From Amphiscolops sp. MND2022 (taxonomy: Eukaryota), in assembly GCA_964187785.1 (NCBI GenBank), contig OZ076409.1, positions 6,574,001-6,638,000 on the forward strand: a stretch of DNA of 64,000 bases, read 5' to 3'. Positions 6,999 through 32,815 of this stretch are shown here, one piece after another; position 1 is the stretch's first letter, and every line of letters begins with the position of its first letter. The notes below the pieces were generated by a model, which was not told the origin of the DNA, ran no database searches, and saw only the letters and a list, made by a program, of their open reading frames with translations. Both the position numbers and the translations under genes were made by a program.

Positions 6999-7062
6999 GC
7001 TATAACTTACACACACCACTTTCCTCTTTTGGTCCGCCCCCCCCCCCCATTGAGAATGATGG

Positions 7063-7680: not shown

Positions 7681-7914
7681 GTATCACCTGACTCCGTTGT
7701 CTTACGAGACCCTGGACCATGCTTCTGGCTTCGCCTCGGAGCAGTGTCCAGAGGGCATAGTGGCCATCGCGTCCAACACTCTGCGGATCCTGGCTCTGGA
7801 GAAACTGGGCGCCGTGTTCAACCAGCAGGCCTCTCCTCTCAAGTACACCCCCCGCAAGTTCATCGTGCACCCTCAGTCGTCCAACATCTTCATGATCGAA
7901 GCAGACCACAACAG
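7681..7914 (+). CDS. SF3B3: SF3B3 exon D
   Basis: YHLTPLSYETLDHASGFASEQCPEGIVAI...EADHN(S); inferred donor is non-canonical GG (cag|ggatta). Confidence 0.9.
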
Positions 7915-10483
7915 GGATTATTAATACTTAGCTGGGGGTATAACAATATAACAAACAAGCCGGGAACGTCTAAAGTCGGCGCTATATCTAAGGCTCAAAA
8001 TTGTAAAAGGACTTCAAAGTGTCAAGTATTCTCTTTTACAGGACTCGAAAAACCCAAACGTTGGACCGAATTGGCGCACCGCCAAAGGGGACTCTTTGAG
8101 ATTTTTCGTCCATTCTGTCGCAAATCATCAAAAAAATGAATGGGGGCCCTTTTGGTGAGAAAAAATTGAAAAAAGTCTCACAAGGCCGGAAAAACTGAAA
8201 AGGGGGACCATTTGGGCTTTGTGAAACTCCAGTTGGTTGCAAAATAGGAAAAAAAATAAGAGGGACCATTGGGAGATTTTAAAAAAATCCGAAAAAAAAA
8301 TTTGATAGATTTTTGAACAATGTCATAGTGCCGAAAAATGTAAAAGGGGGACCCTTTGAGATTTTTTGACATCCATTGTGTTGCAAAATATTAAAAAAGT
8401 TGAAGGGGAGACCCTTTGGTGGAATCCAAAAAGGTTCAAAAAAGTCGCATAGTGCCGAAAAAAATCCGAGTGAAAAAACGAGGGGGGATCCTATGTTATC
8501 GATGTTCTGGACATCGATGTTTTTGTCGTGGACGAGGTTCTGGCGTTTCGAGTATGCTTTGGACGTCCGTAGTTCAAGTTGATGATGTTGAACAAAAAAG
8601 TGGACAGATCGCGTTGAACTGACGAAAAAAACTAGCCACTTTAAGAGTCAGGATTTTCTTCGAAAACGCCGACTAAAAAGGACCATGTGTACAATTCCCC
8701 CCTCGCCAAGCGACCGCAGGGGGGAAAATAAGACGCAAGGTTCAAATGCGATGTCGACATCGTTTGCGTTGTTCAAATTTTGGTCCAATAAAAAATTGAT
8801 GTCGACATAATCCTATCCATTACATTGACTGTCATTTAAAAGTTGCTCATTAGATTTTATCATAGAGAAATTTTACGTTGAAATAGGGGCCAATTTATGC
8901 AATTTTAGCTTGTTCCAAGCGTGAATTTCTGCTCTTTTGGACAATAATATCAAAAAATTAGGGTAATTTTTTTTGCCTGAAGTGTCAAAAGAGTTGTAGA
9001 GACAATCCTCTAACTTAGAGAATACTTGAAGTATTTACATTCATATAATGTTCTCTTATTAGTGAAATCTTTTTATTCGAGAACAAAATGTGCTTTTGTG
9101 TTGGGGGAAAATTCGCAAAAAGGTGTACCTGGTGAGAAATTGAACACATGGTCCCAAAAAAATACGACTCAGTAGTTTTTGTTTTGTTTTTTGGTTCGTT
9201 TTTTCCCCATTAAAATTTCGGATTTTCCTACTGTTAGAATTTCGTTTTTCAAGAATTTTTAAATTTCTAAAACCAAAGTTTTTCTGAAAAATGATTATGC
9301 TCACTTCCGCACTTTGTTTTTCTTGTCCAAGAGTGGCGATTGAAGCAAAAGTGTCGAATTTTGACTAGTTCAAAAACCATTTTCTCACCACTTTTTTTCA
9401 CTCAATTCCTTTGGTATTGGTCCCAAACAAAGGATAATGTTGCCTTAAGATTATCTTGAACAAAATCACTTTTGATTAAATTAAGTGGAGTAGATTTTTG
9501 TCATTTCGCTTTGTTATCAAGTAAATTGAAAAATTCGTTGACTTTTTATTTCAGCCTGCCTCATATTCAGTTCAAGGTTAATTCTATTTTAGAGATTCTC
9601 AGAGTTTAAAATCCTACAGTTTAATGCCTCCATTCCACCAACAAATTCTGGACTCATTCAAAATTCAAAATTGGGTTTTCAAGAAGTTTGACTAAAATTC
9701 AGTTACTCCTCGATAATTCTTGATGCCCAATAATGCTTCGAAGGTAATTCCATGTTAGTTCTATACCGTTTACCGGAAAAACTGAGCCTTCTGAAAAGAC
9801 AAGAAATGGGAAAAACGATATCAGCTCAAATGTCACCTCAAAATAATCAATCATTTACTGAGTTTCGGAAAAGGTTTCCAATCTGTGGCTGATAGTTTTT
9901 TAAACTCAGGTCTTCCTTTTCAATAAATAAAGCACTTTTACACTTTTAGCCCCTATTGTATCAACCAAGTTACGTTGTAACATTCGAAGGAATATGCGAT
10001 TTTGAATAATTTTCAAATTTGTGATGGAAGTTCTCAGATAAATAAATACTCAAGTAGGCGTATTGTAAACTTACGAAGCATAGACATGGTCATCATGTTT
10101 GATGGCATCCTTTCATTATTTTTAGTCGGCTTTTCCGATAGAAAAAGTGACTATAGCAATGACTTTTTAACGACCTGCGAACTGACAGATTTCGTATAAC
10201 ATTCGTATAAGTTATAGCTTAGTAACTTCTCATTGCCCCTTGGCCTATAGGTTAACTCGGGTTTCCGAAATCCGAGGTCTGAGAAGCAGCAGTACGTGGG
10301 TTCGAATCTCCCACTGTTTCCAATTGTGGAAAAGCTATTTTCGAGTTTTATGCGTATCCCTTCGTGTATTTTTGTCTCTGCAAATTTGATGAAAAATTTT
10401 CACAACAGTTACCTTTGCTTATTCAAAGAACTTGTTTTTTGGGCCGTTCCCGGTTTGTTTACCATTCGTTTTAATAATCCCCG
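7912..10483. mobile_element. hAT-like TIR-bounded unit coinciding with SF3B3 intron D-E (Introner-like)
   Basis: cagggattattaa ... ttaataatccccg (12/13 inverted match), followed by 8 nt and the cag acceptor. Confidence 0.65.
7954..8679. mobile_element. HINE family 1 copy
   Basis: aacaagccgggaacg..agtcggcgc ... acgccgactaaaaa. Confidence 0.7.
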
Positions 10484-10494
10484 AATGCCGACAG

Positions 10495-10811
10495 TTTCAC
10501 GACCCAATCCAAAAAGCAGAGGAAGCAGCAAATGGCCGAGGAAATGATCCAGTCAGCCGGAGAAAGCGAACGGGAACTGGCGTCGGAAGTTGCCGAGTCC
10601 TTCTTGCAGGAGAATTTGCCGGAAGACGTTTTCGGCTCTCCCAAGGCCGGACCCGGAATGTGGGCCAGTATTCTGAGGATTCTGAACCCCTTGAATGGAT
10701 CCACAGTGAAACACGTGGAGCTAGAACAGAATGAAGCTGCGTTTTCTATCGCGTTTGTCAAGTTCGCAAACCGACCCGGAGAACAATTTCTGCTTCTCGG
10801 CACAGCTAAAG
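10495..10811 (+). CDS. SF3B3: SF3B3 exon E
   Basis: FTTQSKKQRKQQMAEEMIQSAGE...PKAGPGMWAS...LEQNEAAFS...GTAK(G); gacag acceptor, GC donor (aag|gcagag). Confidence 0.92.
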
Positions 10812-11280
10812 GCAGAGTTGTTACGATTAAACATGAGGGTAGAATTAAAGCCGGTGGAAAATGCCGGTCGTACTCATAGCTGAGGCTTCATTGAAAAAAC
10901 TTCTATATGCGCTTTCAATCGAGGTCTACTGTGTTACTAGAGTGAATCAGTAACTTAGCAAACAGTTGCTCAGTTATTGAAAAAAAGCTTTTTTGAATTT
11001 TACTGTTTTTGCAAGTCTTCACTTTTTGCAGTTACTTTTTTGCCCGGAGCTGGAAAAAAACTATATGCACACAAATAACAACTTACCTCAGTTCGTTCAA
11101 TGTATTTTCCATGAAAAGAAAAAAATCATTGTTTTCCTGTGTGCTTGTGTTTCGTAATTTTTATTGACTCATTATTTTTGTTTCAAATGCATGTTATTTA
11201 TTTACTCTCCTAGAGGATTGGTGGGTCTCTTCTGATCACATGTAAAAAAACTTCAGATTTGTTTAATAGAAGGAAACGTT

Positions 11281-11870
11281 TTTCATTATTTCTGCTTTAG
11301 CAGGAATATTATTGAATTGAAATCTCAAAATTTCTACTTTTGTCAGTACAATTCTCCGTATGATACTGAATAATTCAGATATTTTGTTCGGCAGTGACTA
11401 TAAGCGTAAGATTAAAGTTCTCAAGCTGCCGACGACAATTCAATTCTCGTGCGATGGAACGAGCGAGTTGTAATTATGCATTCGTAAGCTGACGTCATTG
11501 AGATGAAGCGAGCGAATGTTTGTTATTGTGCTTTCGTTGCGCCGAGTTATTGAGATGAAGCGAATGAGTGTTAGTTGTACTTTCGCGGAGAGCTTCGCCT
11601 GCATTCAAATATATATTTGCTTTACTCCGAGATTTACTACTATTACTACTGAAAGACTGGATTGATTCTAGTCAGAAATTGATTCTAGAAAGAAATACTT
11701 GATGATATTTACATGTACAGATTTTTTAAACAACAGAGTTAAAGGCGGTATAAACTGGTACAGTGATTAATTGTGCGCTAAATAATGATTAAACAGGAAT
11801 GTATTGGTATTCAAGATATGATTCTATTATTAATGAAAGATTAAAGCAGAAATAGTAATGGGCCTATTTT
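11281..11870. mobile_element. HINE-like family 3 copy (diverged)
   Basis: atttctgctttagcaggaat ... ttaaagcagaaatag..ggcctatttt. Confidence 0.65.
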
Positions 11871-12149
11871 TTTAAAAAAAAACTTTTTAAAAATTGGCAC
11901 AGAACGGAAAGAAGACTGTTTTTTCAACTTTTTTTGAAAACATGAAACAAAATGGAGTGCTACTAAAACAGCCGAGAGGAAAGGTTTCCAGCAGAGCATA
12001 AATCTTAGAACTGACTTTGTTTGCTCGGTTGGTGCTTCTGTCAAAAAACAGGATTGTGGAAATGATTTTTTTGAAAATTTGACAATGTGGATAAGTTTTT
12101 TGAATATGGTTTTCATTTTGACAGAAAACGAGTACAATGATAAACTACT

Positions 12150-15100
12150 CACTGATAGCAATCTCCGTTCCCAGGGTGAACAGAGTTGTTTCTATTCAGC
12201 AATTCGTTGAGTACAATATTAGGATCTCTGTGTTGTTTTTTCCAGCACGTGTCACATTTTTTTTGTCATCGTAACCGAAATATTCTATTTCACTTTTTGA
12301 CACTCGCAGCCCCGCATTTGGGCCATATCTTGCAACAACTCATGGAACGTTCGCAGCTTGGTTCTATGAATAAAGTTAAAACTATGAGTGCATAAGTCAA
12401 AGCTGTTTTGTTTAACTTTGTTGGTGGCATAGTGTGTTGTATCTTTGCTATAATTTCAATGAACAGGAGAGAAAGTGGTCACTGTTTGTTGATTGTGTAA
12501 ACAACGTATATCGAAAGTTTGTAATCTCTGCCCCACTCAGGCATGTTTACCAAGGCTGAAGTTCATATGCCGTTTAAGGAGGTGAATCAACCATAACAAA
12601 AATCATTTTGCCGTTTTACAACCAGAACAATCAGTCCAAGGTGATTAAAAATGAAAGCTTCAAGCTACTTGACATTATTTTTTTGCTGGAATTGATCGAT
12701 GATCAAAACAAAGGATACGAGGGAAACACCACTCTACTTTCCAGAAACCAAAATCATTGTTTGAAGGTAATGAGTGCCAAGTTAACATTGCATAGCTAAC
12801 CTCATCAACTCTCTGGCACATTGGGCATTTGATTTCACCATGTATTTTTTCCCTTTCTTTTCAGCTAGAGGAGACAATTTTCATCAGATTTGGGTCCACA
12901 TAAACAATGTCCACAAGAGAGAATTCTTGAACTAATTCCAAAAGTTTTACTTTCATCAGTTTATACTCACTGATTGCTTTCTCCTTTTTTCTTCTGTGAT
13001 ATTTTTTCCAACAAATGTCACAGGACTCTTGGTTGTAATCATTGCAGAAATATTTTAATTCTTTATTGTTCGGCCATTTCTTCCAACAACTCATGGAACT
13101 TTCGCAGCTTGGTTCTACAAATAAAGTTAAAACTATGAGTGCATAAGTCAAAGCTGTTTTGTTTAACTTTGTTGGTGGCATAGTGTGTTGTATCTTTGCT
13201 ATAATTTCAATGAACAGGAGAGAAAGTGGTCACTGTTTGTTGATTGTGTAAACAACGTATATCGAAAGTTTGTAATCTCTGCCCCACTCAGGCATGTTTA
13301 CCAAGGCTGAAGTTCATATGCCGTTTAAGGAGGTGAATCAACCATAACAAAAATCATTTTGCCGTTTGACAACCAGAACAATCAGTCCAAGGTGATTAAA
13401 AATGAAAGCTTCAAGCTACTTGACATTATTTTTTTGCTGGAATTGATCGATGATCAAAACAAAGGATACGAGGGAAACACCACTCTACTTTCCAGAAACC
13501 AAAATCATTGTTTGAAGGTAATGAGTGCCAAGTTAACATTGCATAGCTAACCTCATCAACTCTCTGGCACATTGGGCATTTGATTTCACCATGTATTTTT
13601 TCCCTTTCTTTTCAGCTAGAGGAGACAATTTTCATCAGATTTGGGTCCACATAAACAATGTCCACAAGAGAGAATTCTTGAACTAGTTCCAAAAGTTTTA
13701 CTTTCATCAGTTTATACTCACTGATTGCTTTCTCCTTTTTTCTTCTGTGATATTTTTTCCAACAAATGTCACAGGACTCTTGGTTGTGATCATTGCAGAA
13801 ATATTTTAATTCTTTATTGTTCGGCCATTTCTTCCAACAACTCATGGAACTTTCGCAGCTTGGTTCTACAAATAAAGTTAAAACTATGAGTGCATAAGTC
13901 AAAGCTGTTTTGTTTAACTTTGTTGGTGGCATAGTGTGTTGTATCTTTGCTATAATTTCAATGAACAGGAGAGAAAGTGGTCACTGTTTGTTGATTGTGT
14001 AAACAACGTATATCGAAAGTTTGTAATCTCTGCCCCACTCAGGCATGTTTACCAAGGCTGAAGTTCATATGCCGTTTAAGGAGGTGAATCAACCATAACA
14101 AAAATCATTTTGCCGTTTTACAACCAGAACAATCAGTCCAAGGTGATTAAAAATGAAAGCTTCAAGCTACTTGACATTATTTTTTTGCTGGAATTGATCG
14201 ATGATCAAAACAAAGGATACGAGGGAAACACCACTCTACTTTCCAGAAACCAAAATCATTGTTTGAAGGTAATGAGTGCCAAGTTAACATTGCATAGCTA
14301 ACCTCATCAACTCTCTGGCACATTGGGCATTTGATTTCACCATGTATTTTTTCCCTTTCTTTTCAGCTAGAGGAGACAATTTTCATCAGATTTGGGTCCA
14401 CATAAACAATGTCCACAAGAGAGAATTCTTGAACTAGTTCCAAAAGTTTTACTTTCATCAGTTTATACTCACTGATTGCTTTCTCCTTTTTTCTTCTGTG
14501 ATATTTTTTCCAACAAATGTCACAGGACTCTTGGTTGTAATCATTGCAGAAATATTTTAATTCTTTATTGTTCGGCCATTTCTTCCAACAACTCATGGAA
14601 CTTTCGCAGCTTGGTTCTACAAATAAAGTTAAAACTATGAGTGCATAAGTCAAAGCTGTTTTGTTTAACTTTGTTGTTGGCATAGTGTGTTGTATCTTTG
14701 CTATAATTTCAATGAACAGGAGAGAAAGTGGTCACTGTTTGTTGATTGTGTAAACAACGTATATCGAAAGTTTGTAATCTCTGCCCCACTCAGGCATGTT
14801 AACCAAGGCTGAAGTTCATATACCGTTTAAGGAGGCGAATCAACCGTAACAACAATCATTTTGCCGTTTTACAACCAAAACAATCAGTCCAAGGTCATTA
14901 AAAATGAAAGCTTCAAGCTACTTGACATTATTTTCTTGCTGTAATTGATCGATGATCGAAACCAAAGGATACGAGGGAAACACCACTCTACTTTCGAGAA
15001 ACCAAAATCATTAATGTTTGAAGGTAATGAGTGCCAAGTTAACATTGCATAGCTAACCTCATCAACTCTCTGGCACATTGGGCATTTGATTTCACCATGT

Positions 15101-18100
15101 ATTTTTCCCTTTCTTTTCAGCTAGAGGAGACAATTTTCATCAGATTTGGGTCCACATAAACAATGTCCACAAGAGAGAATTCTTGAACTAATTCCAAAAG
15201 TTTTACTTTCATCAGTTTATACTCACTGATTGCTTTCTCCTTTTTTCTTCTGTGATATTTTTTCCAACAAATGTCACAGGACTCTTGGTTGTAATCATTG
15301 CAGAAATATTTTAATTCTTTATTGTTCGGCCATTTCTTCCAACAACTCATGGAACTTTCGCAGCTTGGTTCTACAAATAAAGTTAAAACTATGAGTGCAT
15401 AAGTCAAAGCTGTTTTGTTTAACTTTGTTGGTGGCATAGTGTGTTGTATCTTTGCTATAATTTCAATGAACAGGAGAGAAAGTGGTCACTGTTTGTTGAT
15501 TGTGTAAACAACGTATATCGAAAGTTTGTAATCTCTGCCCCACTCAGGCATGTTTACCAAGGCTGAAGTTCATATGCCGTTTAAGGAGGTGAATCAACCA
15601 TAACAAAAATCATTTTGCCGTTTTACAACCAGAACAATCAGTCCAAGGTGATTAAAAATGAAAGCTTCAAGCTACTTGACATTATTTTTTTGCTGGAATT
15701 GATCGATGATCAAAACAAAGGATACGAGGGAAACACCACTCTACTTTCCAGAAACCAAAATCATTGTTTGAAGGTAATGAGTGCCAAGTTAACATTGCAT
15801 AGCTAACCTCATCAACTCTCTGGCACATTGGGCATTTGATTTCACCATGTATTTTTTCCCTTTCTTTTCAGCTAGAGGAGACAATTTTCATCAGATTTGG
15901 GTCCACATAAACAATGTCCACAAGAGAGAATTCTTGAACTAATTCCAAAAGTTTTACTTTCATCAGTTTATACTCACTGATTGCTTTCTCCTTTTTTTCT
16001 TCTGTGATATTTTTTCCAACAAATGTCACAGGACTCTTGGTTGTAATCATTGCAGAAATATTTTAATTCTTTATTGTTCGGCCATTTCTTCCAACAACTC
16101 ATGGAACTTTCGCAGCTTGGTTCTACAAATAAAGTTAAAACTATGAGTGCATAAGTCAAAGCTGTTTTGTTTAACTTTGTTGGTGGCATAGTGTGTTGTA
16201 TCTTTGCTATAATTTCAATGAACAGGAGAGAAAGTGGTCACTGTTTGTTGATTGTGTAAACAACGTATATCGAAAGTTTGTAATCTCTGCCCCACTCAGG
16301 CATGTTTACCAAGGCTGAAGTTCATATGCCGTTTAAGGAGGCGAATCAACCATAACAAAAATCATTTTGCCGTTTTACAACCAGAACAATCAGTCCAAGG
16401 TGATTAAAAATGAAAGCTTCAAGCTACTTGACATTATTTTTTTGCTGGAATTGATCGATGATCAAAACAAAGGATACGAGGGAAACACCACTCTACTTTC
16501 CAGAAACCAAAATCATTGTTTGAAGGTAATGAGTGCCAAGTTAACATTGCATAGCTAACCTCATCAACTCTCTGGCACATTGGGCATTTGATTTCACCAT
16601 GTATTTTTTCCCTTTCTTTTCAGCTAGAGGAGACAATTTTCATCAGATTTGGGTCCACATAAACAATGTCCACAAGAGAGAATTCTTGAACTAATTCCAA
16701 AAGTTTTACTTTCATCAGTTTATACTCACTGATTGCTTTCTCCTTTTTTTCTTCTGTGATATTTTTTCCAACAAATGTCACAGGACTCTTGGTTGTAATC
16801 ATTGCAGAAATATTTTAATTCTTTATTGTTCGGCCATTTCTTCCAACAACTCATGGAACTTTCGCAGCTTGGTTCTACAAATAAAGTTAAAACTATGAGT
16901 GTATAAGTCAAAGCTGTTTTGTTCAACTTTGTTGGTGGCATAGTGTGTTGTATCTTTGCTATAATTTCAATGAACAGGAGAGAAAGTGGTCACTGTTTGT
17001 TGATTGTGTAAACAACGTATATCGAAAGTTTGTAATCTCTGCCCCACTCAGGCATGTTAACCAAGGCTGAAGTTCATATACCGTTTAAGGAGGCGAATCA
17101 ACCATAACAAAAATCATTTTGCCGTTTTACAACCAAAACAATCAGTCCAAGGTGATTAAAAATGAAAGCTTCAAGCTACTTGACATTATTTTCTTGCTGT
17201 AATTGATCGATGATCGAAACCAAAGGATACGAGGGAAACACCACTCTACTTTCGAGAAACCAAAATCATTAATGTTTGAAGGTAATGAGTGCCAAGTTAA
17301 CATTGCATAGCTAACCTCATCAACTCTCTGGCACATTGGGCATTTGATTTCACCAATTTTTGATTTCACCAAGGTATTTTTCCCTTTCTTTTCAGCTAGA
17401 GGAGACAATTTTCATCAGATTTGGGTCCACACAAACAATATCCACGAGAGAATTCTTGAACAAATTCAAAAAGTTTTACTTTCATCAGTTTATACTCACT
17501 GATAGTTTTCTCCGTTCCCAGGGTGAACAAAGTTGTTCCCACTTGGCAATTTCGATGAGTTCGATTTCATGATCTCTATGCTGATTTTTTTTCCAACACA
17601 TGTCACAGAACTCTTGATTGTCATCACACCAGAAGTATTTCAGCTCAATATTGTTTGGCCTAATCTTCCATACAACTCATGGAACTTTCGCCGCTTGGAT
17701 ACACTCAGCAACTTCGATTCGTTCGATTTTATGATCTCTGTGATGATTTTTCCAACAAATTTCACAGAACTCTTGGTTGTAATCATTGCAGAAATATTTT
17801 AGTTCACTATTGTTCGGCCATTTCTTCCAACAACTCATGGAACTTCGCAGCTTGGTTCTACAATTAAAGTTGAATGCATAAGTCAAAGCTGTTTTGTTTA
17901 ACTTTGTTGGTGGCTTTGTGTTTTGTATTTTTGCTATACTTTCAATGAACAGGAGAGAAAGTGGTCACTGTTTGTTGATTGTGTAAACAACGTATATCGA
18001 AAGTTTATGTAATCTCTGCCCCACTCAGGCATGTTAACCAAGGCTGAAGTTCATGTACCGTTTAAGGGGGCGAATCAACCATAACAAAAATCATTTTGCC

Positions 18101-21100
18101 GTTTTACAACCAAAACAATCAGTCCAAGGTGATTAAAAATGAAAGCTTCAAGCTACTTGGCTTTTTTCTTGCTGGAATTGATCGATGATCTAAACAAAGG
18201 ATACGAGGGAAACACCACTCTACTTTCCAGAAACCAAAATCATCAATGTTTGAAGGTAATGAGTGCTAAGTTATTATTGCATAGCTAACCTCATCAAGTC
18301 TCTGGCACATTGGGCATTTGATTTCACCAGGTATTTTTCCCTTTCTTTTCAGCTAGAGAACACAACTTTCATCAGATTTGGGTCCACATAAACAATGTCC
18401 ACAAGAGAGAATTTTCGAACAAATTCAAAAAGTTTTACTTTCATCAGTTTATACTCACTGATAGCTTTCTCCGTTCCCAGGGTGAACAAAGTTGTTCCCA
18501 CTTAGCAATTTCGATGAGTTCGATTTCATGATCTCTATGCTGATTTTTCCAACACGTGTCACAGAACTCTTGATTGTCATCACAGCAGAAGTATTTCAGC
18601 TCAATATTGTTTGGCCTAATCTTCCATACAACTCATGGAACTTTCGCCGCTTGGATACACTCAGCAACTTTGATTCGTTCGATTTTTTGATCCGTGATGA
18701 TTTTTCCAACAAATTTCACAGAACTCTTGGTTGTAATCATTGCAGAAATATTTTAGTTCACTATTGTTCGGCCATTTCTTCCAACAACTCATGGAACTTT
18801 CGCAGCTTGGTTCTACAAATAAAGTTAAAATTATGAGTGCATAAGTCAAAGCTGTTTTGCTTAACTTTGTTGGTGGCATAGTGTTTCGTATCTTTGCTAT
18901 ACTTTCAATGAACAGGAGAGAGTGGTCACCGTTCGTGGATTGTTTAAGCAACGTATATCGAAAGTTTATGTAATCTCTGCCCCACTCAGGCATGTTTACC
19001 CAGGCTGAAGTTCATATGCCGTTTAAGGAGGCGAATCAACCATAACAAAAATCATTTTGCCGTTTTACAACCAAAACAATCAGTCCAGGGTGATTAAAAA
19101 TGAATTCAAGCTACTTGGCATTATTTTCTTGCTGGAATTGATCGATGATCGAAACAAAGGATACGAGGGAAACACCACTCTACTTTCCAGAAAGCAAAAT
19201 CATCAATGTTTGAAGGTAATGAGTGCCAAGTTAACATTGCATAGCTAACCTCATCAAGTCTCTGGCACATTGGGCATTTGATTTCCCCAGGTATTTTTTC
19301 CCTTTCTTTTCAGCTGGAGGAGACAATTTTCATCAGATTTGGGTCCACATAAACAATTTCCACAAGAGAGAATTTTCGAACAAATTCAAAAAGTTTTACT
19401 TTCATCAGTTTATACTCACTGATATTTTTCTCCGTTCCCAAGATGAACAAAGTTGTTCCCACTTAGCAATTTCGATGAGTTCGCTTTCATGATCTCTATG
19501 CTGATTTTTCCAACACATGGCACAGAACTCTTGATTGTCATCACAGCAGAAGTATTTTAGCTCAATTTCGTTTGGCCATATCTTCCATACAACTCATGGA
19601 ACTTTCGCAGCTTGGATACACTCAGCAACTTCGATTCGTTCGATTTTATGATCTATCTCTGTGATAATTTTTCCAACAAATGTCACAGAACTTTTGGTTG
19701 TAATCATTGCAGAAATTTTTTAGTTCACTATTGTTCGGCCATTTCTTCCATACAACTCATGGAACTTTCGCAGCTTGGTTCTACAAATATAGTTAAAATT
19801 ATGAGTGCATAAGTCAAAGCTGCTTTGCTTAACTTTGTTGGTGGCATAGTGTTTCGTATCTTTGCTATACTTTCAATGAACGGGAGAGAGTGGTCACCGT
19901 TTGTTGATTGTTTAAACAACGTATATCGAAAGTTTATGTAATCTCTGCCCCACTCAGGCATGTTTACCAAGGCTGAAGTTCATATGCCGTTTGAGGCGAA
20001 TCAACTATAACAAAAATCATTTTGCTGTTTTACAACCAAAACAATCAGTCCAGGGTGATTAAAAATGAAAGCTTCAAGCTACTTGGCATTATTTTCTTGC
20101 TGGAATTGATCGATGATCGAAACAAAGGATACGAGGGAAACACCACTCTATTTTCCAGAAAGCAAAATCATCAATGTTTGAAGGTAATGAGTGCCAAGTT
20201 AACATTGCATAGCTAACCTCATCAAGTCTCTGGCACATTAGGCATTTGATTTCACCAGGTATTTTCTCCCTTTCTTTTCAGCTGGAGGAGACAATTTCCA
20301 TCAGATTTGGGTCCACATAAACAATTTCCACAAGAGAGAATTTTCGAACAAATTCAAAAAGTTTTACTTTCATCAGTTTATACTCACTGATATTTTTCTC
20401 CGTTCCCAGGGTGAACAAAGTAGTTCCCACTTAGCAATTTCGATGAGTTCGATTTCATGATCTCTATGCTGATTTTTCCAACACATGTCACAGAACTCTT
20501 GATTGCCATCACAGCAGAAGTATTTTAGCTCAATTTCGTTTGGCCATATCTTCCATACAACTCATGGAACTTTCGCAGCATGGATACACTCAGCAACTTC
20601 GATTCGTTCGATTTTATGATCTCTGTGATGATTTTTCCAACACATGTCACAGAACTCTTGATTGTCATCAAAACAGAAGTATTTCAGCTCAATATTGTTT
20701 TGCCTAATCTTCCATACAACTCATGGAACTTTCACAGCTTGGATACACTCAGCAACTTCGATTCGTTCGATTTTATGATCTATCTCTGTGATGATTTTTC
20801 CAACAAATGTCACAGAACTCTTGGTTGTAATCATTGCAGAAATATTTTAGTTCACTATTCTTCGGCCATTTCTTCCAACAACTCATGGAACTTTCGCAGC
20901 TTGGTTCTACAAATAAAGTTAAAATGTGAGTGCATAAGTCAAAGCTGTTTTGCTTAACTTTGTTGGTGGCATAGTGTTTTGTATCTTGGCTATACTTTCA
21001 ATGAACAGGAGAGAGTGGTCACTGTTTGTTGATTGTGTAAATAACGTATATCGAAAGTTTATGTAATCTCTGCCCCACTCAGGCATGTTTACCAAGGCTG

Positions 21101-21800
21101 AAGTTCATATGCCGTTTAAGGAGGTGAATCAACCATAACAAAAATCATTTTGCCGTTTTACAACCAAAACAATCAGTCCAATGTGATTGAAAATGAAAGC
21201 TTCAAGAAACTTGACATTATTTTCTTGCTGGCATTGATCGATGATCAAAACAAAGGATACGAGGGAAACACCACTCTACTTTCCAGAAACCAAAATCATC
21301 AATGTTTGAAGGTAATGACTGCCAAGTTAACATTGCATAGCTAACCTCATGAACTCTCTGGCACATTGGGCATTTGATTTCACCAGGTGTTTTTTCCCTT
21401 TCTTTTCAGCTGGAGGAGACAACTTTCATCAGATTTAGGTCCACACAAACAATGTCCACAAGGGAGAATTCTTGAACAAATTTAAAAAGTTTCACTTTCG
21501 TCAGTTTATAATCACTGATAGCATTCTCAGTTCCCAGGGTGAACACATTTGCTTCCACTTAGCAATTTCGAAGAATTTGATTCTATGATCTCTGTGCTGG
21601 TTTTTCCAACGAATGTCACAGAACTCTTGATTGTCATCATAGCAGAAGTATTTTAGCTCACTATTGAGACGCCTGCAGAGACGCGTTTTGGCCATTTCTT
21701 CCAGCATCTACTCATATCCTTAAGATGTAACTTGCCCAGCTTGGATCTACGAATAAAACTAAAACTATGAATGCATAAATCAAAGTTGTTTAATTTGTAG
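12150..21800 (-). repeat. Tandem array of about 11-12 units (about 751-754 bp proximally, about 960-1130 bp distally) derived from a decayed coding region
   Basis: Near-identical ORFs recur at 12608, 13359, 14110, 15615, 16367, 19057, 20022 and 21150; one further copy at ~23460-24200. Confidence 0.95.
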
Positions 21801-22649
21801 GTGGTACACTTTATTCACTTTTTGTTCCTATGTTTTCATTAGAGAATAGGGAAAATGGAGACTATTTGGCAATTGTGTAAAAATCGTAAATTGAAAATTC
21901 GTGTCTGCTCTACTCCACACTGGCAAGTCATGTTTGATTGCCGGTGAAGAGGTGGCCTAACAATAAAAAAATCGTTTTCTACACAGTTGAAAATTCGTGT
22001 ATCCTCTACCCCACACAGGCAAGTTATGTTTGATTGCCGTTGAAGAGGTGGCATAACGATAACAAAAAATCGTTTTCTACACTCAGTTGAATAGCTATGA
22101 CAAAAAAATGTTGCACGTAAATTACTGTACGAAAAGACGTCAAAGTAAATACTGATCGAAACGTTTCTGATCGCTGCATTGACGTGACCTCAAGAGAAAA
22201 GACAAGATAGACTGATAAGTGTTCAATTTCAGTTTTAAGCGTGCTGAAGGAGCAAGTGAGATTAGTAAACACATTTCAGCAATATAAACTGCAGTGGTAG
22301 ACGTTAAGATTGAGAACTAGGAAAAGAAACAGTGACACATCAATAACTTCTTTCAGAGGCACATTATTTTACTGATATTTTGTTGAACAGTTTGTGAACC
22401 ACTGCAGACTGTAGGTAACAATAAATTACATTTTGATGTGTTTTTGGTACCTTCTTCGTATTGTTATTTGTAAGTAACAATGAGTGAAACTAACCAGTTG
22501 AAAGAACGGAAAACGCTTAGATCATGAGAAGCACCAGGAGAGCAATTGAAATCAAAAAATGATGAAAACAGCAGTAAAAATGGCAACTTGGCGGTTGGGT
22601 GATCCGATTAACATTGGCCGTTTCAAGTGATTTTGACCTTAACAGTTAC

Positions 22650-24752
22650 CCTTAACTAGTAGACTGATGAAACAGCCTTTTGCATTGGGAATAGGGATGT
22701 GGACTATGCGCGGGTTGTTCAATTGGCACAGCCTTGGGGAATCTCAGTGCCACTACAGCGTTTGGCAGAGGTTGGATAATTGATTCTGTAGAAATGACAT
22801 GATATTCGTGCACTTCGACGAAACTTTCGTTCTCCAATTTTGACGGCTTGAACCATCCGATTACTCGAAATCCTTTACGGCAGTTTGACGTACTTGACAC
22901 AGAAGGGTTCTGAATCCCATCCACAAATGCTCCATCAGTTCTAAACTCAACCAAATTGAACGCTGCTTCGTTTTGTGGCCTCACACTCACAATAATGTTG
23001 TGGTTCACAGAGAGTGTTGTGGTTCACAGTAATATTTTTGGCGAACTTCACTGAAACGAAAGACTTCTGGTGAGAAGTTCTTAAGAAAGTTGAGGACACT
23101 GAACCAAAGCTCGCAGATCCCTTTCCTTCAATCCACTCTTCAACAAACACACAACGTTTCTTTAACTGTTTGTCCATCACAGAAATTTCCGCTGCACAAG
23201 TAAACAGTAGAAATGATGTTTTTTAAAGTAGATATGATGTATTTTAATTGCCGTTCATCAGTAACAAAGTGGAAACTTTTATTATCGGTTTCGTTTTCGA
23301 TGCCGAACGCTTGCATTTCGTTGAACGATAAATTCATTTGAGAATTCGGTACTGGGATAAGTGGTTCAGTAGTAGATATCAAAAGGTTTTGGGAGTCAAT
23401 CATGGTCTCTTTAATTCGGAGTTCAATTAGTTCCACTATTTTTCCCGGATAAGTTTCGGGGTGATATCTTCATATGCCGTTTAAGGAGGCGAATCAACCA
23501 TAACAAAAAATCATTTTGCCGTGTTACAACCAAAACAATCAGTCCAAGGTGATTAAAAATGAAAGCTTCAAGAAACCTGACATTATCTTGCTGGAATTGA
23601 TCGATGATCAAAACAAAGGATACGAGGGAAACACCATTCTACTTTCCAGAAACCAAAATCGTCAATGTTTGAAGGTAATGAGCGCCAGGTTAACATTGCA
23701 TAGCTAACCTCATGAACTCTCGGGCACATTGGGCATTTGATTTCACCAGGTATTTTTCCTTCTTTTCAGCTAGAGAATAAAATTTCTTAGTTTTAGGGTC
23801 CACACAAACAATGTCCACAAGGGAGAATTCTTGAGAACAAAATTTTAAAAGTTTCACTTTCATCAGTTTTTACTCACTGATAGCATTCTCAGTTCCCAAG
23901 GTTAACACAGTTGCTCCCACTTAGCAATTTCGAAGTTCGAATTTATCATCTCTGTGCTGGTTTTTCCAACAATTGTCACAGAATTCTTGATTGTCATCAT
24001 AGCAGAAGTATTTTAGCTCACTATTGAGACGCCTGCAGAGACGCATTTCGGCCGTATCTTCCAACATCTACTCGTATCCTTAAGATGTAACTTGCCCAGC
24101 TTGGATCTACGAAAAAACTAAAAATTTGAATGCCTAAATCAAAGCTGTTTAATTTGTAGGTGGTACATATTACTCGCTTTTTGTTCCTATATTTTCATTA
24201 GTGAGTAGGGAAAATGGAGACTATTTGGCAATTGTGTAAAAATCGTAAATTGAAACTTCGTGTATCCTCTACCCCACACAGGCAAGTTATGTTTGATTGC
24301 CGTTGAAGAGGTGGCATAACGATAACAAAAAATCGTTTTCTACACACAGTTGAAAATTCGTGTATCCTCTACCCCACACAGGCAAGTTATGTTACTACGG
24401 TTCAGTAGTAGATATCAGGTTTTGGGAGTCAATCATGGTCTCTTTAATTCGGGGTTCCATTAGTTCCACTATTTTTCCCGGATAAGTTTCGGGGTGATAT
24501 CTTGTTACGATCCTACTCTTTCTCGCTAGAGGTAATGAGCGCCACTACCTTGTTGCTTCTTGGGTCTCCAAAAAGAAAGAACCGGTCGTCGTTTATTTGG
24601 TGGAGCTTGTTTTTAGACAGCATACTCTGACGACCGGACGTTGCTTGTTTGAACTTCAGTGGCTCAACTGCGTGTTTCCCATGTGAATTTACTAAAAACA
24701 ACCTTTTATCTTCGCAGTCGGATGCAAAATCGGAGTTTATTTTTAAATTCAT
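22650..24752 (-). pseudogene. Decayed Cys-rich ORF of a mobile element; likely source of the tandem array
   Basis: Chain of frameshifted minus-strand ORF fragments (24752, 23611, 23436, 23180, 23008) that includes one array unit. Confidence 0.4.
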
Positions 24753-25208
24753 CTGCCAAGGTCTCTAGCAGAAACAGGATTGAGGGAGCTTGCGAATGCG
24801 GTGTTCTTTTTAGGTGAGAATCTATTTTTGTTCGGGTTAGTTCCTAAACACAGAAATGTTGGAAAAAGTAATAACAGAAAAGAAAAATATTTTCTTGTAA
24901 AATAATAATTTGACACCTCTAGAAGAATACAAAAGTGTGGCGTTGTAACAAAAAGAGGAGAGATTTGATATTGTCAAAGAAGGGAGTGAGGTTTGAGGTG
25001 ACATGGAGATACGAAAAACGAATCACAGATAAAAAAAGTCGCAATCTTTGTTGAAGGGAATATCGAAAAATTACTGTAATCTCCGCTGATGTTGGAACTA
25101 AATAACTTTTGAAGTAGAGTTCGTTTCGTTAATTTCCGGCGACAATTATAGTTAATATTTAGGGGGAAATGGAGAGGTATGTGTTGTGGAAATGATGGAT
25201 GATTATCT

Positions 25209-25595
25209 AACAAGACGCCCGCTAAGCACCGGGATATTTTCCTCCCTTTTCGCCTTCATCACTTGAGCCATAGCTATTTTGGGAGAAGAATAGGATCTAA
25301 ATGATAAGATCTAAAATTTATTGATTTTAGATCTTATTCCCTTTAGATCTTAATCCCATTTTTACTTTAGATCTTTTTCCATCAGATTTTATACTCGTCC
25401 TGAAATTTTAGATGTTGTTCGCTTTGGATCTTATTTCCTTTTTTGACTTTAGTTCTTATTCCTCCCTCCTACTAAAATAGTCCCTCCTACGGTGGTGAGT
25501 CAAGTGATGGAGCGTGGAGATTTGGCAGAATTTGGAAAAAAACGCAACACAGATGATGAGTTTCCTCCCCAATGAAAATGTGGGTCGGAAAATAA
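25209..25595. mobile_element. HINE-like family 2 copy
   Basis: aacaagacgcccgctaagcaccggg ... gggtcggaaaataa, with internal agatct microrepeats. Confidence 0.6.
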
Positions 25596-25999
25596 TAAAA
25601 CAAGTTAGATTATTAGCCAATCTGCAAAATGCATCAGTAAATGATGCAGCAAACCTTCCGCAGGTTTATTAGCCCGCACTGTGTCCAAAAAGGCAAGTGT
25701 AAACAAGTACAGCAAAAAACATGGAAGCCAGGAATTTTGTTTAATTCGTAAATTCAATGTGTAGGGATCACAACATATATTTATTTTGATATTTTCAATT
25801 ATTTGTTTCAAGTTTTTGCAAAACTTTTCCTGCCCACTTTTAATAGTAGAGCTAGGGTTCACATCTGACATTGTATCGGAATGGATGCAGACCACTTTTT
25901 TAGTAGAGCCATAAACATATGAGGTACAGTCCACTTTCATAGAGCCAGAAACATGTAACTTTGGTTTTTGAACGCAATGGACGAACAGATCAAGTACTT

Positions 26000-28336
26000 G
26001 CTGCGGGTTTGCCTGCCATTTTTGAACATTGAAGTTTCTAAACAGCTCATAGTGAATAAAATGTTCCGCTCTTTCACGTTTATTGACTTCGGATATGTCA
26101 CTGAAATCGGTTACGAAGCAAAGGAGGCCCCATGGTCTTATGAGGTTGATTGGGTAAACAGGAACTGTTTACAGGGTTGAGCTCGCAAAGACGTCGACGT
26201 AAGTCAGATGTTTGACCGACGTAAATTGACAATGCATCTTTGGTACCAACCAAAAAGTAGGCAAAACCAGCTTCTGATGTAATTCTATTTTCCGAGGTCG
26301 AAAAGGAGAAACTTTGGCTAAGTCTGAAAGTCAGCTTGATTAGCAGATGTTCGCGCTGGCCTTCCCATGAATTCATCTCACTGTTTGAGCAAGTAATTTT
26401 TCAATTGGAGCTAACGTTGCTGTTTCCTCGCCGGAAAAAAGTTATATTACCTGAATTCTGAACTCGACTTACTAATAAAGTTGTTCCCTTTCCCGGGGAC
26501 AATATTCTGTCCGAAAAAAAATCAATTTTGTGGCGATTTTCCCAATAGTTTCCCCAGTAGCTTTGCGTATGGTCATTTCCATAAAATTTTTCGGCGGGAA
26601 TTAGGTCCGTCTGAGTAAAGAGCCTGTATAATTATGAACGAAACCTGTTTGCTGGTGCAAAATCACGCTAAACCACCCATTTTCAACCAACATGTTGAAC
26701 TTCATTAGTTTTTTTTCGTTGACAGACTGTTTGAAAACACATATTTGACCCTGTGATACCTTCAAAGGTCGAACGTTCATGGTTATCCTCAGCAGTGCAT
26801 TTTCATTGCAGTAGAGAAGTTCAGGTTCAAAACATTGATGGTTGAGTGCTCTCTTTATTGCTAGAGGGGCAGTGTTCCAGTTACTCGGGCAGTTCATTTT
26901 CACCTCATCGATGCTCTTTAGCTCCCTAACGACCTGACCCGATGAAACCCCACGGATTTGAGCATGTATGGCTTTCAACTCAGCAGGTTAGTTGTCCGAG
27001 TCTCAAAATTTACATTTTTCCGCAAACCTTTCCAAAATTTCTTCGTTCGTTTGCCGATTTACCAGGAACGGATAACATCTTGAGAAACTGCCTACCTATA
27101 AAGTCTGCCATTCTAACCCATTTCCTTCTAACGAAAAGATCTCTACACTTGTAATTATGATTGGAGATGTCCATAATAAACGACCTTGCGGTGGTAATTG
27201 TTTCTGATCTCCGGTGCCAAATATCAGAACGCCTTCGAAAGGCACATAAGTGTCTCGTTTTTTTGAGGATGTGGTCTTTTGTAGCAAACTCTTCCGCAGA
27301 TACCATACCAATCTCTTCAAAATACAAAATCGATCATTTTCATTATTACTCGTTTCAGAAGGTCGTTTTTCAATTTCTGTGACCCTTGCTGCACAATGCA
27401 GTCCACGTTCAGTGTTTTTGAAACTGGTGAGCAAAAATTGTCATGAACATGCATTCCGGAAAACTGCACACCTCTTTCACTGCTCAAAGAAATAAATATC
27501 ACATTTAACCTCTGACACAAAGCGTACAAAGGAGTATTTTTGATCAAAAACGTTTTTCAGAACCGGGCATCCCTACTACTACTAAATGATGTTTGAAAAA
27601 AAAGCGGAACTTTTGTACTCGTCAATTGTTTTCATAAGCCTCTTAACCGTAGATTGCTGGTCGTTGAAAACAACGTTTTGCGATTTAAGACGATTGTATT
27701 GCAAAGGGCAATACAAGTTGCAATCAATGATGAACTGGATGTCAGGCTTACCTGTATCCTGAACTAAGTCATGAATTTGCGAAGCAACTGCGAAGAGTTT
27801 TTCCATAACAGGTCTCAAAAGTTCACCTGTGTATTCTTCCTGCAAAGCATTATAAACGATAGTTGGCGTTTCGTTATTTGTGTTTTCATCGAGTGATGTC
27901 CGGAACGCCACATTTGCACCAATCTGACGGTCTTGAGAAAAATGCGATCCGGGACATATATGACTCCTTTAAGGATAAACGTTTTCAGAAACCGACTATC
28001 TCACGTTCTATGATCGTCTCAGCGTCGTAACAAGACCAGCTGTTTGAAATGCTTTTATAATTGTACCCCGTCTTCATATAAATCGAATTCTGTTTCGTAT
28101 TTACCAAATTGAAGTAAAAACTTGTTAGGAAATAGGGCCATGTCGGGGAATTACATTTGGAAACACAACGACCACAGGTTTCGATTGATCTTCACGACTA
28201 TCGACAAGCCTGCTGATGTCGTGATTGTTAAGTATGTCTAAATAATTGGACGCGAAAAATCTATACTGCTGGCTTTGATTCGAACCACCCAGAAATAAAA
28301 TTTTGAAATGATACCACAAGGGCTTGTTTTTTTGCA
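26000..28336 (-). pseudogene. Frameshifted PIF1-family helicase with C-terminal GIY-YIG nuclease (Helitron/Helentron-like remnant)
   Basis: PIF1-like motifs EEIGMVS, PFEGVLIFGTGDQKQLPP, ITMNV..SQGQ and MTIRKATGET, followed by FAYFL...IYVGQTSDLRRRL (GIY-YIG); many frameshifts. Confidence 0.75.
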
Positions 28337-28367
28337 AATCGTAACAACTCTGAACCTAATCGTCAAG

Positions 28368-28615
28368 GTCTGAAACTGAACCCCCCATCGATCACGGTGG
28401 GCTATGTGTACGCGTACCGGGTGCCGGACTCGGGAGACAGCTTCGAGTTCATCCACAGGACTGAGATGGAGGATGTGGCTCTGGCGGTGTGCGAGTTCAA
28501 GGGGAGGGTGTTGATCGGGGTGGGCAAGTGGCTGCGACTGTACGACATGGGACGGAAGAAGTTGCTGAAGAAGTGCGAGAACAAACATCTCACTAACAAG
28601 ATCATCACCATCAAG
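28368..28615 (+). CDS. SF3B3: SF3B3 exon F
   Basis: GLKLNPPSITVGYVYAY...GRVLIGVGKWLRLYDMGRKKLLKKCENKHLTNKIITIK; tcaag acceptor, gttgtt donor. Confidence 0.92.
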
Positions 28616-29558
28616 GTTGTTGAATGAATAGAACAAAAAAGAAAGAATAAAACAAGAAAGAACATGAATGAAACAAGGAAAACAAGCCGGGAACGGCCAA
28701 AGTTGGCGCTATATCGAAGGCTCAAAATTGTAAAAGGGGGACCATTTGGGCTTTGTGAAACTCCAGTTAGTTGCAAAAGATGAAAAAAATTAAAGGGGGA
28801 CCCTTGGGAGATTTTTAAAAATTTCCGAAAAAAATTTAAAATGAGATTTTTGAAGTGTCACAGTGCCGAAAAATGTAAAAGGGGGCCTTTGGGATTTTTC
28901 AACATCCATTCTCGGGCAAAATTGAAGGTGGGACCCTTTGGTGCAGTCCAAAAATTTTCGAAAAAAGTCTCATAGTGCCGAAAAAAAATCCAAGTTAAAA
29001 ACACCAAGATAATAAAAGTTGGATCCTGAGTATGTTTTCGAGGTTTTGGACGTTGGTTTTGTTTTGGACGAGGTTCTGACGTTTCCAGTATGTTTTGGAC
29101 ATCCGTAGTTCAAGTTGAACAAATGAACGAAAAGTGGACTTTACGCGTATAAAAAAACTACCCGCTGTAAGAGTCGGGCACTTTTCTTCAAAAGCGCCGA
29201 CTAAAAAACACTGTTTGTTCAGACACTTCTTTCCAGTTGTTTATGGTCTAGTTTCTGACTGTTCAATTTGTTTGGTACTTTTTGTTTACAAACCAGAACG
29301 CCTCGTGTGAAAGATGATATCTGGAAAATTTCAATGAAGTGAATGAATTCCATGCTTTTTATTCCTTTGTCAAATTTTTGTACAATAAAATATTTGGCAA
29401 CAAACGAAAACCGTTGTGCATAACACATTGTTTTCCACGGTAGTTTTCCCAAGAGGAAAAAAGCATTAAAATAATTTTAAAAAAAACAGTATATTCCGTT
29501 CAAAAACCTTTTAAAAGCATTTTTCGTGAAACAACAAACTGTCTAATTAACAACCTTG
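28612..29558. mobile_element. hAT-like Introner forming SF3B3 intron F-G
   Basis: TIR caaggttgtt/aacaaccttg; perfect 8-bp TSD atcaccat at 28604-28611 and 29559-29566. Confidence 0.85.
28681..29208. mobile_element. HINE family 1 copy (nested)
   Basis: aacaagccgggaacggcc hairpin ... gcgccgactaaaaaa. Confidence 0.7.
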
Positions 29559-29570
29559 ATCACCATGCAG

Positions 29571-29758
29571 ACTGTCGGGTACCGGATCTTTGTCACCGAT
29601 GTGCAGGACAGTGTGACCTTTCTGCGCTACAAGCCCATAGAGAACCAGATGATCATTTTCGCCGATGACCCCAACCAGAGATTTGTGATGTCATCCTGTG
29701 TCGTGGATTACAACACAATCGCAGTGTCCGACAAATTTGGAACCATTTCCATCATCAG
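29571..29758 (+). CDS. SF3B3: SF3B3 exon G
   Basis: TVGYRIFVTDVQDS...ENQMIIFADD...DKFGTISII(R); cag acceptor, gtaata donor. Confidence 0.93.
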
Positions 29759-31132
29759 GTAATATTATTTCACTAAAGCACTGTTGTGAGTACTAATTAT
29801 TGCTGAACTGTTCATCTCACAATAGCTGATACAGTTGAATCCACCTAAATCGTATCACCAAGGACCGAAAAAAATAGTACGAAGAAGGAGAGATACGAAT
29901 TAACGACGGATGATATTACTAAGGTTGTCGCGAAAAGGCGTGTCTCGGATACCGACGAATTGAACGAAGATCCGAACTATCAGGATACGAATTAACCGGA
30001 ATTGACTCCATGTTGCACGTTTTTTCTCCAGCTATCACTTTTATAACTTTTTCTAAACTTCAAGGAAATGCCTGAGTCGTAGAGCTCCATGGCCTTGTGT
30101 TTAATGATGATAAATTTATTTATCCTGATTTCAATACCTAAACATTCTTCAAGTTAAATACATTTAAACAATATTTTGACTATAAAATAAGGAAAAGACT
30201 TCCAAAGGGCTTGTTTTCGCTCAGTGGGAAGCATCGTGGCATCAAATTTTTTTTTAAATTAAGTTTCAGTAACTTAGTTGGTGGAAAGTCATGAGTAATA
30301 ATTGAACCGCACTTCCACTCAAAAGATAAAAAAATACTTTCATAATATGATACTTTCATGATATGAACAATATCATACCGCTTCTGCTGTTGTACAAGAG
30401 TTCAAACGTGACACTTAATTTATACATTGCTGCAAACTTCGAAATAGTAACTATATTTTTAGAAGTTAAGAAGGCGTTAAGATGGAGTTCTGAAGTTACT
30501 TTTCAGCCTTCAAATTAGACGTTTAACTCTGAAATAGTTCACAAGGAGGCTCTGTTTAACAAATTGAATTCGTTGAGAAGTCGGCCTAAACTGGCATAAA
30601 AAACGCAAAAAATCTGAAGTTTTTGTCGTTCACCGAATGTTTTGCCTTTGCCTTCAAATAATTCCCTTGCTGGTACGTTTTACTCTCAATATAATGCGTT
30701 GGCCCGGTAAGCAGACGACGTGGATTTCAATCCTGCTCATTGCCACATATGATATATGCATTTTGAACTATAGAAATAGTGAGTTTGAATGAAACTTGTA
30801 TAATAAGTGATATAATTTAGGTATAACATTGGGAATTTGAATATAGCGCTTGTTTTCTGCGTGTTACAATGCTAAAGGTGGGTGTTTGAATCTACTCAAC
30901 GTCGGAGTTTTTGTCCAAATTGAGTGATACTAATAGCAGTTTCTGACAGCGTATATAACCAAACTATATTTCGGATGCAGCGCATGGAATGCGGATATAA
31001 CATATACGGTTGTTTTAGTATTATACTGACTTCGGTTCATTTTCTCGAAGGCCATTTTTAGTCAACGCGTTAAAAACTGGAATTTGCCCAACTTATAACA
31101 GTCATCTTTTTTAAATCTCAGTGGTCGATTAA

Positions 31133-31672
31133 AACAAGCCGGGACCGGCTCAAGTCGGCGCCATATCTAAGGCTCAAAAATAGCAAAAGGACTTCAAAGT
31201 GTCAAGTATTCTCTTCTACAGTACCCGCTTGAGGAAAAATTGGAAAAAAAAATCCGAACTTTTTAAATTTTTTTCCGATTTTTTTTGGTTTCCGGTAAGT
31301 CGCATAGTGCCGAAACATGTAAAAGGGGGCACTCTGGGAGTCTTTGAACATCCATTTTTTGCAAAATAGACAAAAAAATGACGGGTGGGCCCTTTGAGAT
31401 ATTTGCGAAAAAAAAGTCTCACAAAGCCGAAAAAAAAATTGCACAAAAAAATTTTGGTCAAGGGCGAGACTCGAACCCATTTCCTTCTGCTTGGCAGACC
31501 TCAAAAAAGCCGTAACCTCTATGCCAAGTGGCAGTGAAGTAGTGTGGCAGTAGTGGCAGTTTAGTGTTAGTCGGTCAACTTATAAAATTTATAAAATCTG
31601 TCAGTTCGTTGGTCTTAAAAAAAAGTCACTACTATAGTCTGCGTTTTTCTTCGAAAAGCGCCGACTAAAAAA
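31133..31672. mobile_element. HINE family 1 copy with tRNA-like segment
   Basis: Family termini; minus-strand B box gggttcgagtct at ~31467-31478. Confidence 0.7.
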
Positions 31673-31888
31673 CGGTTTTCGAGCCCAAAATGTCCCCATT
31701 TGCGTTTTTCGGTAGTATGCGAGTTTTCAATTTTATTTTTATTCATTTTGGGTTTTTTGATTTGCCAGAATTTAACAGCCACCCTTGAACATGTTTAAAA
31801 GAGTTGGCGCTTTTCGATCTTGAAGTGGCCCTGTGTTTTTATCTAGTCCACCAGCTGAACTTTTGACCTCTTTTTTTTTTCTTGCCAG

Positions 31889-32762: not shown

Positions 32763-32815
32763 TTTCTTCGCCGTGTTGTAAGAAAACCACCGCGTTTTTA
32801 ATTGCCTTCCAGGAG

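Follow-up and report, generated by a model that had tools for sequence, protein, structure and literature searches.

Maize Ac/Ds elements, hAT transposons with a YAGGGATG-type end, can be spliced from exons and thus act as introns. In these maize cases, the alleles are mutant and splicing is imprecise, whereas the insertions described below are fixed and the protein is kept. Introners derived from DNA transposons with terminal inverted repeats (TIRs), including those of the hAT class, are described in the available text of two studies as having an 8-bp target-site duplication (TSD) and carrying one splice site, with the other coming from the TSD or the adjoining exon (PMC9860276; PMC12130899). 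The accessible part of Gozashti 2022 reports the co-option of splice sites from neighbouring exons (PMC9860276), and that of Gozashti 2025 reports hAT introners in plants, fungi, dinoflagellates and a tunicate, with GC and GA donors occurring in Polarella fam9 (CA/TG termini, 8-bp TSD) and Styela clava fam1 (PMC12130899). Transposon-derived introns with non-canonical borders, TIRs and TSDs are also known from Fritillaria borealis, Amoebophrya and euglenids; according to the accessible portions of these reports, they form the majority class there, with AG-AC/AG-AT or variable borders and an altered splicing machinery (PMC11282704; PMC13326754). GG donors make up 0.014% of those in human (PMC5714493, citing Parada 2014). 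In the copepod Eurytemora affinis, GA and GG donors are found in 10-12% of introns, mostly as GA, and Robertson 2017 proposed no transposon origin for them and gave no 3' ends (PMC5714493). The 2025 introner survey, in its available text, gives 0 families for Eurytemora, and no acoel names were present in the 12 of its 14 supplementary files that were searched (PMC12130899). hAT introners and copepod GG donors were already known separately. In a literature search with thin coverage of subscription journals, we found no paper joining GG donors to hAT or other transposon ends, or covering acoel splice sites.

We analysed a window of 64,000 nucleotides from Amphiscolops sp. MND2022 (OZ076409.1, positions 6,574,001 to 6,638,000). 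Intron 12 of the SF3B3 gene in this window (7915-10494) is likely a spliceosomal intron born from a hAT-family DNA transposon that landed in an exon. The exon downstream of it was identified as SF3B3, for which the best named matches were the acoels Symsagittifera roscoffensis and Convolutriloba macropyga (87-88%), and 1 copy of the gene was found in the 1.07-Gb genome. With upstream DNA added to the window, the gene comprised 17 exons and 16 introns, with 11 GT, 4 GC and 1 GG donors and AG at all acceptors. Removal of the 16 introns gave an open frame of 1208 aa and a stop.

At intron 12, the exon ends in GAC CAC AAC AG, the intron runs from GGATTA to GACAG, and the next exon begins with T TTC. 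The joined reading, DHN-S-FTTQ, is the same as that of the relative P0076/P0002 (98.8%; 485/491 residues identical in P0076). Of 121 homologues that have the DHN motif, 120 keep the register DHN-x-[YF]T (a pattern of our own); the exception (AHTE) is also without an indel. The initial annotation had held that collinearity fixes a GG...AG junction with no GT or GC at the border, and the coordinates bore this out. When every AG acceptor within 80 nt and all donors were tested, GG at 7915 with AG at 10494 scored 215, whereas the best GT/GC pair reached 131 and costs 12 residues in a stretch that is free of indels in 121 homologues. ACAG is present at both junctions, so that five shifted borders would give an identical mRNA; only GG-AG has G first and AG last. 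Splicing of intron 12 presumably occurs at the GG donor. A search for ORFs ending in ...EADHNRDY found no independent ORF crossing the donor at 7915, and exon ORF look-ups for independent read-through succeeded in 0/9 cases in one set and 1/1 in another.

The features of the locus are listed in Table 1. The inverted repeat had been described earlier as pairing position 7912 onwards with 10471-10483, followed by 8 nt and CAG, and it was found as stated: the 13-nt repeat is paired at 12/13 positions, begins 3 nt before the donor, and leaves 8 nt plus CAG to the end of the acceptor. Its short ends are of the YAG(G/A)G type, the same type as on transposase-bearing elements. The spacer is exactly 8, and the expected TSD copies agree at 3/8. 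This count is as the initial annotation gave it, but 3/8 is about the chance level on its own and provides no evidence for intron 12 by itself. TTAAT at 10471-10475 is branch-point-like and may serve as the branch point.

Table 1. Features of the SF3B3 locus around intron 12 and two sibling introns (window positions)
Feature	Position	Strand	Remarks
SF3B3 coding exon 12 of 17 (RYHLT...EADHN-AG)	7681..7914	+	Final 3 bases CAG = start of inverted repeat
Expected left 8-bp target-site copy GACCACAA, coding D-H-N	7904..7911	+	From sequence; position suggested by class geometry
Left terminal inverted repeat CAGGGATTATTAA	7912..7924	+	Gives donor CAG|GGATTA, GG = 7915-7916
SF3B3 intron 12, GG-AG, phase 2, 2580 nt	7915..10494	+	Collinearity; without counterpart in three relatives
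Nested copy of abundant repeat (CAAACAAGCCGGGAACG...GCCGACTAAAAA)	7952..8679	+	At most 88% to other copies examined
Nested 475-nt element	8680..9154	.	Own 17-nt inverted ends (GGACCATGTG...CACATGGTCC)
Intron core	9450..10100	.	No second copy found in genome
Second nested repeat	10119..10460	-	End motifs as in 7952-8679, reverse orientation
Right terminal inverted repeat TTAATAATCCCCG	10471..10483	+	With TTAAT (10471-10475), short pyrimidine run
Expected right target-site copy AATGCCGA	10484..10491	+	3/8 match to GACCACAA
Acceptor CAG	10492..10494	+	Probably former host exon bases
SF3B3 coding exon 13	10495..10811	+	Begins T TTC
Sibling intron 13, GC-AG, 17.6 kb	10812..28367	+	Perfect 16-nt inverted repeat CAGAGTTGTTACGATT at 10813-10828 and 28337-28352
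Sibling intron 14, GT-AG	28616..29570	+	Perfect TSD ATCACCAT (28604-28611, 29559-29566); TIR CAAGGTTGTT (28612-28621, 29549-29558)

No matching family was found for the parent element of intron 12, and its core is unique in the genome. In a genome pattern search, the exact ends formed no family either, with 2 and 6 matches compared to 7 and 2 in controls. Searches of introns 12-13 for a transposase and of intron 12 against Rfam gave no match, and the two ends of the intron, folded singly, were no better than shuffles. Because intron 12 holds three nested repeats and a unique core, the parent element appears to have decayed. Introners are recognised by high similarity along their length among several introns; here the core is unique and the ends are shared only as CAGGGAT. 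On sequence grounds, intron 12 is a putative introner in its behaviour, with no detectable family membership.

We propose that the insertion duplicated the 8 bp directly upstream of the host CAG. The element end CAG|GGAT would pair with U1 at -3, -2, -1, +1 and +3 and act as a weak donor, and the host CAG beyond the second duplicate would become the acceptor. Since three host bases were replaced by three element bases, the frame and the protein would be kept, and the insertion could survive in an essential single-copy gene. Afterwards, the element body would have decayed, three repeats would have nested inside, and the intronic duplicate would have drifted. Survival would depend on a sense-strand element end YAG|GGAT and a host YAG past the duplicate at a frame-keeping distance, and the same hAT ends could also yield GC donors (flank G plus element C) and GT donors (CAAG|GT). 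An insertion that gave an intron from element and host splice signals without a frameshift is consistent with the protein collinearity. The proposal draws on the borders set by this collinearity, the inverted repeat with its 8+CAG spacing, the absence in relatives, the recurring class of introns and the source hAT elements.

A donor-anchored repeat was observed in 5/16 SF3B3 introns. Intron 14 shows the order ATCACCAT, CAAG|GTTGTT ... AACAACCTTG, ATCACCAT, GCAG|, in which 4 host bases were swapped for 4 element bases, giving K here and Q in the sister protein. This supports intron 14 as a younger form of the geometry proposed for intron 12. The earlier suggestion that the CAG of the element took the place of the host CAG gains from this intron and from six more CAG|GGAT/GAAT introns. 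In intron 13, the G of the donor comes from the flank and the C from the repeat, as is also the case for the GC donors of introns 1 and 2. An exact-end pattern search for intron 13 found no family, and the repeat matched in intron 14 was the nested one. Intron 13 also contains a tandem array of ~751-nt units (12860-15490 and 17500-21000) with a 122-codon minus-strand frame per unit that had no Pfam match, and decayed frames at 25600-28000, likewise without a Pfam match, which we take to be helicase-like from their resemblance.

The class was examined in 346 junctions (339 confident) from 18 genes: SF3B3, clathrin heavy chain (24), PRP8 (31) and 15 dynein heavy-chain regions. Clathrin heavy chain was compared with C. 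macropyga and PRP8 with distant references, and the dyneins were scored against paralogue exons. We dropped 21/296 dynein junctions that were unresolved and 2 rival clathrin calls, and 1-2 junctions per gene were missed in clathrin and PRP8; 7/346 calls are of low confidence, and support is weak for two GG calls in dyneins (one reference; low score). The frequency of GG donors, which the initial annotation had proposed to count genome-wide, was obtained for these 18 genes, where 6 of 346 junctions (1.7%) were confident GG donors. All 6 read CAG|GGAT, with AG at the exon end and A at intron +3, and in each of the 6 an ATCCC-type right arm lay 11-16 nt ahead of the acceptor. A seventh intron of the class had the GA donor CAG|GAATG and the right arm CATCCCTG. 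A/T-TCCC at -26..-12 was present in 7/7 CAG|GGAT/GAAT introns compared to 4/312 GT introns. Among the 339 confident junctions, the counts were 6 for GG, at most 4 for GA, and 17 for GC. One GA donor, in dynein D12 (CAG|GAAAGG), was without a repeat, and the GC donors, which were frequent, showed the recurrent starts GCTAGT and GCACGC (L313-L345 and the window).

Donor-anchored inverted repeats scoring at least 10 were observed 8 times, compared to 0.1 expected by chance in the 346 junctions. At the inner TIR positions, the two ends matched within introns at 32/49 positions compared to 20.9 in cross pairs, which was the best of 5040 permutations. Because the inner repeats agree within introns and not across them, each intron appears to have both ends of one element, with several families involved. 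In a list of 14 class members, set together with its spacings by hand and eye after scoring, the spacing to the acceptor equalled the prediction of an 8-bp duplication in 8/14, and the rest were longer, never shorter. The right duplicate was frequently pyrimidine-rich in these members, as if remodelled. For the seven GG/GA introns pooled, the TSD copies matched at 23/56 positions compared to 15.0 permuted (P=0.019). The five G|CA introns showed no excess at TSD positions 1-5 (10/25 compared to 9.8 permuted), with D6 alone reaching 7/8. The GG intron of dynein D11 was absent in a 98.4%-identical relative (562/571 residues), and two ENA contigs read Q-G-W through its donor, i.e., GG and not GT. 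Since its right triplet is an in-frame TAG, the exonic CAG must be that of the element.

These data bear on an explanation in which the assembly has GG in error for GT and the inverted repeat arose by chance, which we regard as highly improbable. It would fit the rarity of GG donors in human (0.014%; PMC5714493, citing Parada 2014) and the fact that base 7916 is known from the assembly alone. However, the right arm has C 10479 as the complement of G 7916, which speaks against a base error at 7916. Furthermore, five further GG donors share the same context, the D11 donor is GG in two ENA contigs, and the chance expectation is 0.1 in 346.

Repeat-bounded introns clustered by gene, with 5/16 in SF3B3, 4/20 in dynein D12 (C11:6.16-6.18 Mb) and 0 in 13/18 genes (P=0.001 for SF3B3 minus intron 12 compared to the rest). 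In addition, CGT(G/C)AAG ends 3/5 G|CA-type introns, at window 28361-28367, in SF3B3 intron 1 and in the dynein D6 intron at C11:1736140-1735682; the AAG acceptor is unusual and has no pyrimidine tract, and duplication does not explain two of them.

Elements that could serve as the source were found in the genome. It contains at least 150 matches to the hAT dimerisation domain (150/150 of those scored), and 14/20 examined hAT elements had a TIR and an 8-bp TSD. Their ends include TAGGGATGTGCC, TAGGGATGGAAA, TAGGGTTGGC and TAGAGCTGCG, and some read YAGGGATG. The hAT-like end proposed earlier for intron 12 thus has counterparts: hAT elements with ends of this kind and with 8-bp TSDs are present. 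In 1.95 Mb enriched for hAT loci, 28/2594 YAG(G/A)GHT end pairs had a perfect 8-bp TSD, e.g., CAGGGATTGGAAAT, and free short elements (MITEs) that end in CAGGGAT, CAGGGTT or CAGAGTT and have perfect TSDs were common. The end motif YAGGGATGTCAAAAA, which a free copy has in common with one of the dynein GG introns, had 43 copies compared to 2 in controls. Of the 40 copies examined, the GC content of the flanks was exon-like in 13 (17% in controls). Oriented as predicted, 4 adjoined host exons with a Pfam match, one of them at exactly 8+CAG (one end read for each). Ankyrin and ion-transport exons have their 3' end at YAG|GGATG, a ryanodine-receptor exon begins after ATCCCTG + 8 + CAG, and a thyroglobulin-repeat exon begins after a longer pyrimidine tract.

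The genome carries at least 23 copies of U1 (L063-L085), which fall into several divergent subfamilies. Their 5' ends are mostly ACTTACCTG, with the variants ACTTACCTT, ACTAACCTG and ACTTACTTG; ACTTACCTT suits AAG|GT, and ACTAACCTG suits GTTAGT, the commonest donor here (25/312). None of the 23 copies, a lower bound, was complementary to GG or GC. The class donors matched the U1 5' end at 5-8/11 positions compared to a mean of 6.8 for GT donors, so that ordinary U1 may suffice.

A different reading is that the terminal stem pairs in the pre-mRNA and is needed for removal, either as an aid to the spliceosome or for a non-conventional cut at shifted borders (e.g., CA...GA, element plus one TSD), as in euglenids and Amoebophrya; somatic excision at the DNA level would yield an identical mRNA. 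We consider this reading unlikely. The repeats are better kept than the adjoining TSDs (16/16 around the 17.6-kb intron; 12/13 around the unique, repeat-invaded core of intron 12), but this apparent conservation is inflated because the repeats were chosen for matching, and the right arm may persist as a branch point and pyrimidine run (YTRAY in 7/14 compared to 83/312). A functional stem would also fit the duplexes predicted between the two ends in 14/14 (-10 to -27 kcal/mol; no control set), the five shifted borders of intron 12 with identical mRNA, and T near the acceptor at 0.31 in the class compared to 0.54. However, 14/14 begin with G and end with AG (CAG 8, AAG 4, TAG 2), and in D11, where the right triplet is TAG in phase 0, a shifted cut would leave an in-frame stop. 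An AG-AC reading of the Fritillaria type was rejected as a general rule, as it matched only the slide of intron 12 and not the clathrin intron.

The ENA entries of the relatives are unspliced ORF calls, since several of them enter introns (P0077, P0078, P0085-P0087). P0076, P0002, P0003, P0083 and P0084 are uninterrupted over the last 420-490 residues, so that three relatives are without introns 12-16; other relatives are without introns 1, 2, 9 and 10. The empty orthologous site of intron 12 was seen in the three relatives at the protein level, from such unspliced ORF calls. Among 56 intron-bearing eukaryote metagenome loci, the site was continuous in 34/36 covered loci; no acoel locus was found among the 80 metagenome loci. 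The position of intron 15, however, is common to 11/34 covered eukaryote loci and yet missing in the relatives, so that absence by itself is no proof of gain. This and the poor TSD match could suggest an older canonical intron, lost in the relatives, whose donor was replaced by a hAT insertion at the 5' border. We find this scarcely credible, because the 11 nt between the right arm and the acceptor leave no space for an older intron, and the site is continuous in the 34/36 covered loci and in three acoel relatives. Equally improbable is a damaging allele or dead gene copy that is left unspliced. The donor is weak and the gene is known from DNA alone, but a single copy was found, its 1208-aa frame is intact, and 485/491 residues are those of the sister protein. 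Furthermore, the repeats accumulated inside intron 12 indicate that it is old and fixed in the lineage. Birth from a hAT insertion remains the preferred origin of intron 12.

At least 9/16 SF3B3 introns (gene span -16411..33174 of the window; L013, L014) are missing in one or more relatives, canonical-looking ones included. P0491 (98.4% identical) is without four consecutive dynein D11 introns (L277-L279), and P0488 and P0489 indicate more lineage-specific introns near D11. This pattern points to very fast intron turnover in this lineage.

The class resembles the Eurytemora introns, as far as the accessible parts of the reports describe them, in the obligate exonic AG, the A at +3, the lineage-specific recent introns in conserved genes and the ordinary U1 5' end (PMC5714493; Frey and Pucker PMC7072748). 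Unlike in Eurytemora, where the share is 10-12% and mostly GA, it is ~2% and mostly GG here. By our own count, YAG precedes 31/36 Eurytemora donors (data of PMC5714493), which is a lead only. With the Fritillaria borealis, Amoebophrya and euglenid introns, as described in the available text, the class shares TIRs and TSDs, a non-canonical border and species-specific positions; unlike them, it keeps G...AG in 14/14, is a minority (14/346) and goes with no demonstrated change in the splicing machinery. Compared to the introners of Gozashti, the donor here is GG, a class without a separate entry in their table. Since the introns here are long and decayed and have only the TIR core in common, a homology-based introner search would miss them.

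Under the hAT reading, GG donors gain a concrete origin; in animals they are very rare, and where they do abound they have had no explanation. This reading also places transposon-born introns, in decayed form, in an animal group outside the introner surveys searched, as far as their available text extends. A sister species with ~99% identical proteins is without these introns, which makes it possible to date the gains and to read the empty sites. If the 1.7% from 18 genes is extrapolated, gene models restricted to GT/GC would break many genes in the genome. A wider scenario, in which YAGGGA hAT ends are a general animal source of GG/GA donors, an acoel burst produced thousands of GG/GA/GC introns, the stem was selected to bring a weak donor to the acceptor and the copepod donors have the same origin, is speculative and in our view rather doubtful.

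Some further observations were made near the locus. Intron 11 contains a duplicate of the exon 11 end together with its GC donor (6985-7063, 7452-7510), and intron 8 holds, at about -229..-197 (L015-L013), a second, short copy of the exon 8 end (LVYFEMDPSGK). Elsewhere in the window, weak Pfam matches indicated exons of a BAR-domain gene at 40794-44693 (+) and a SET-like frame at 63342-63722 (+).
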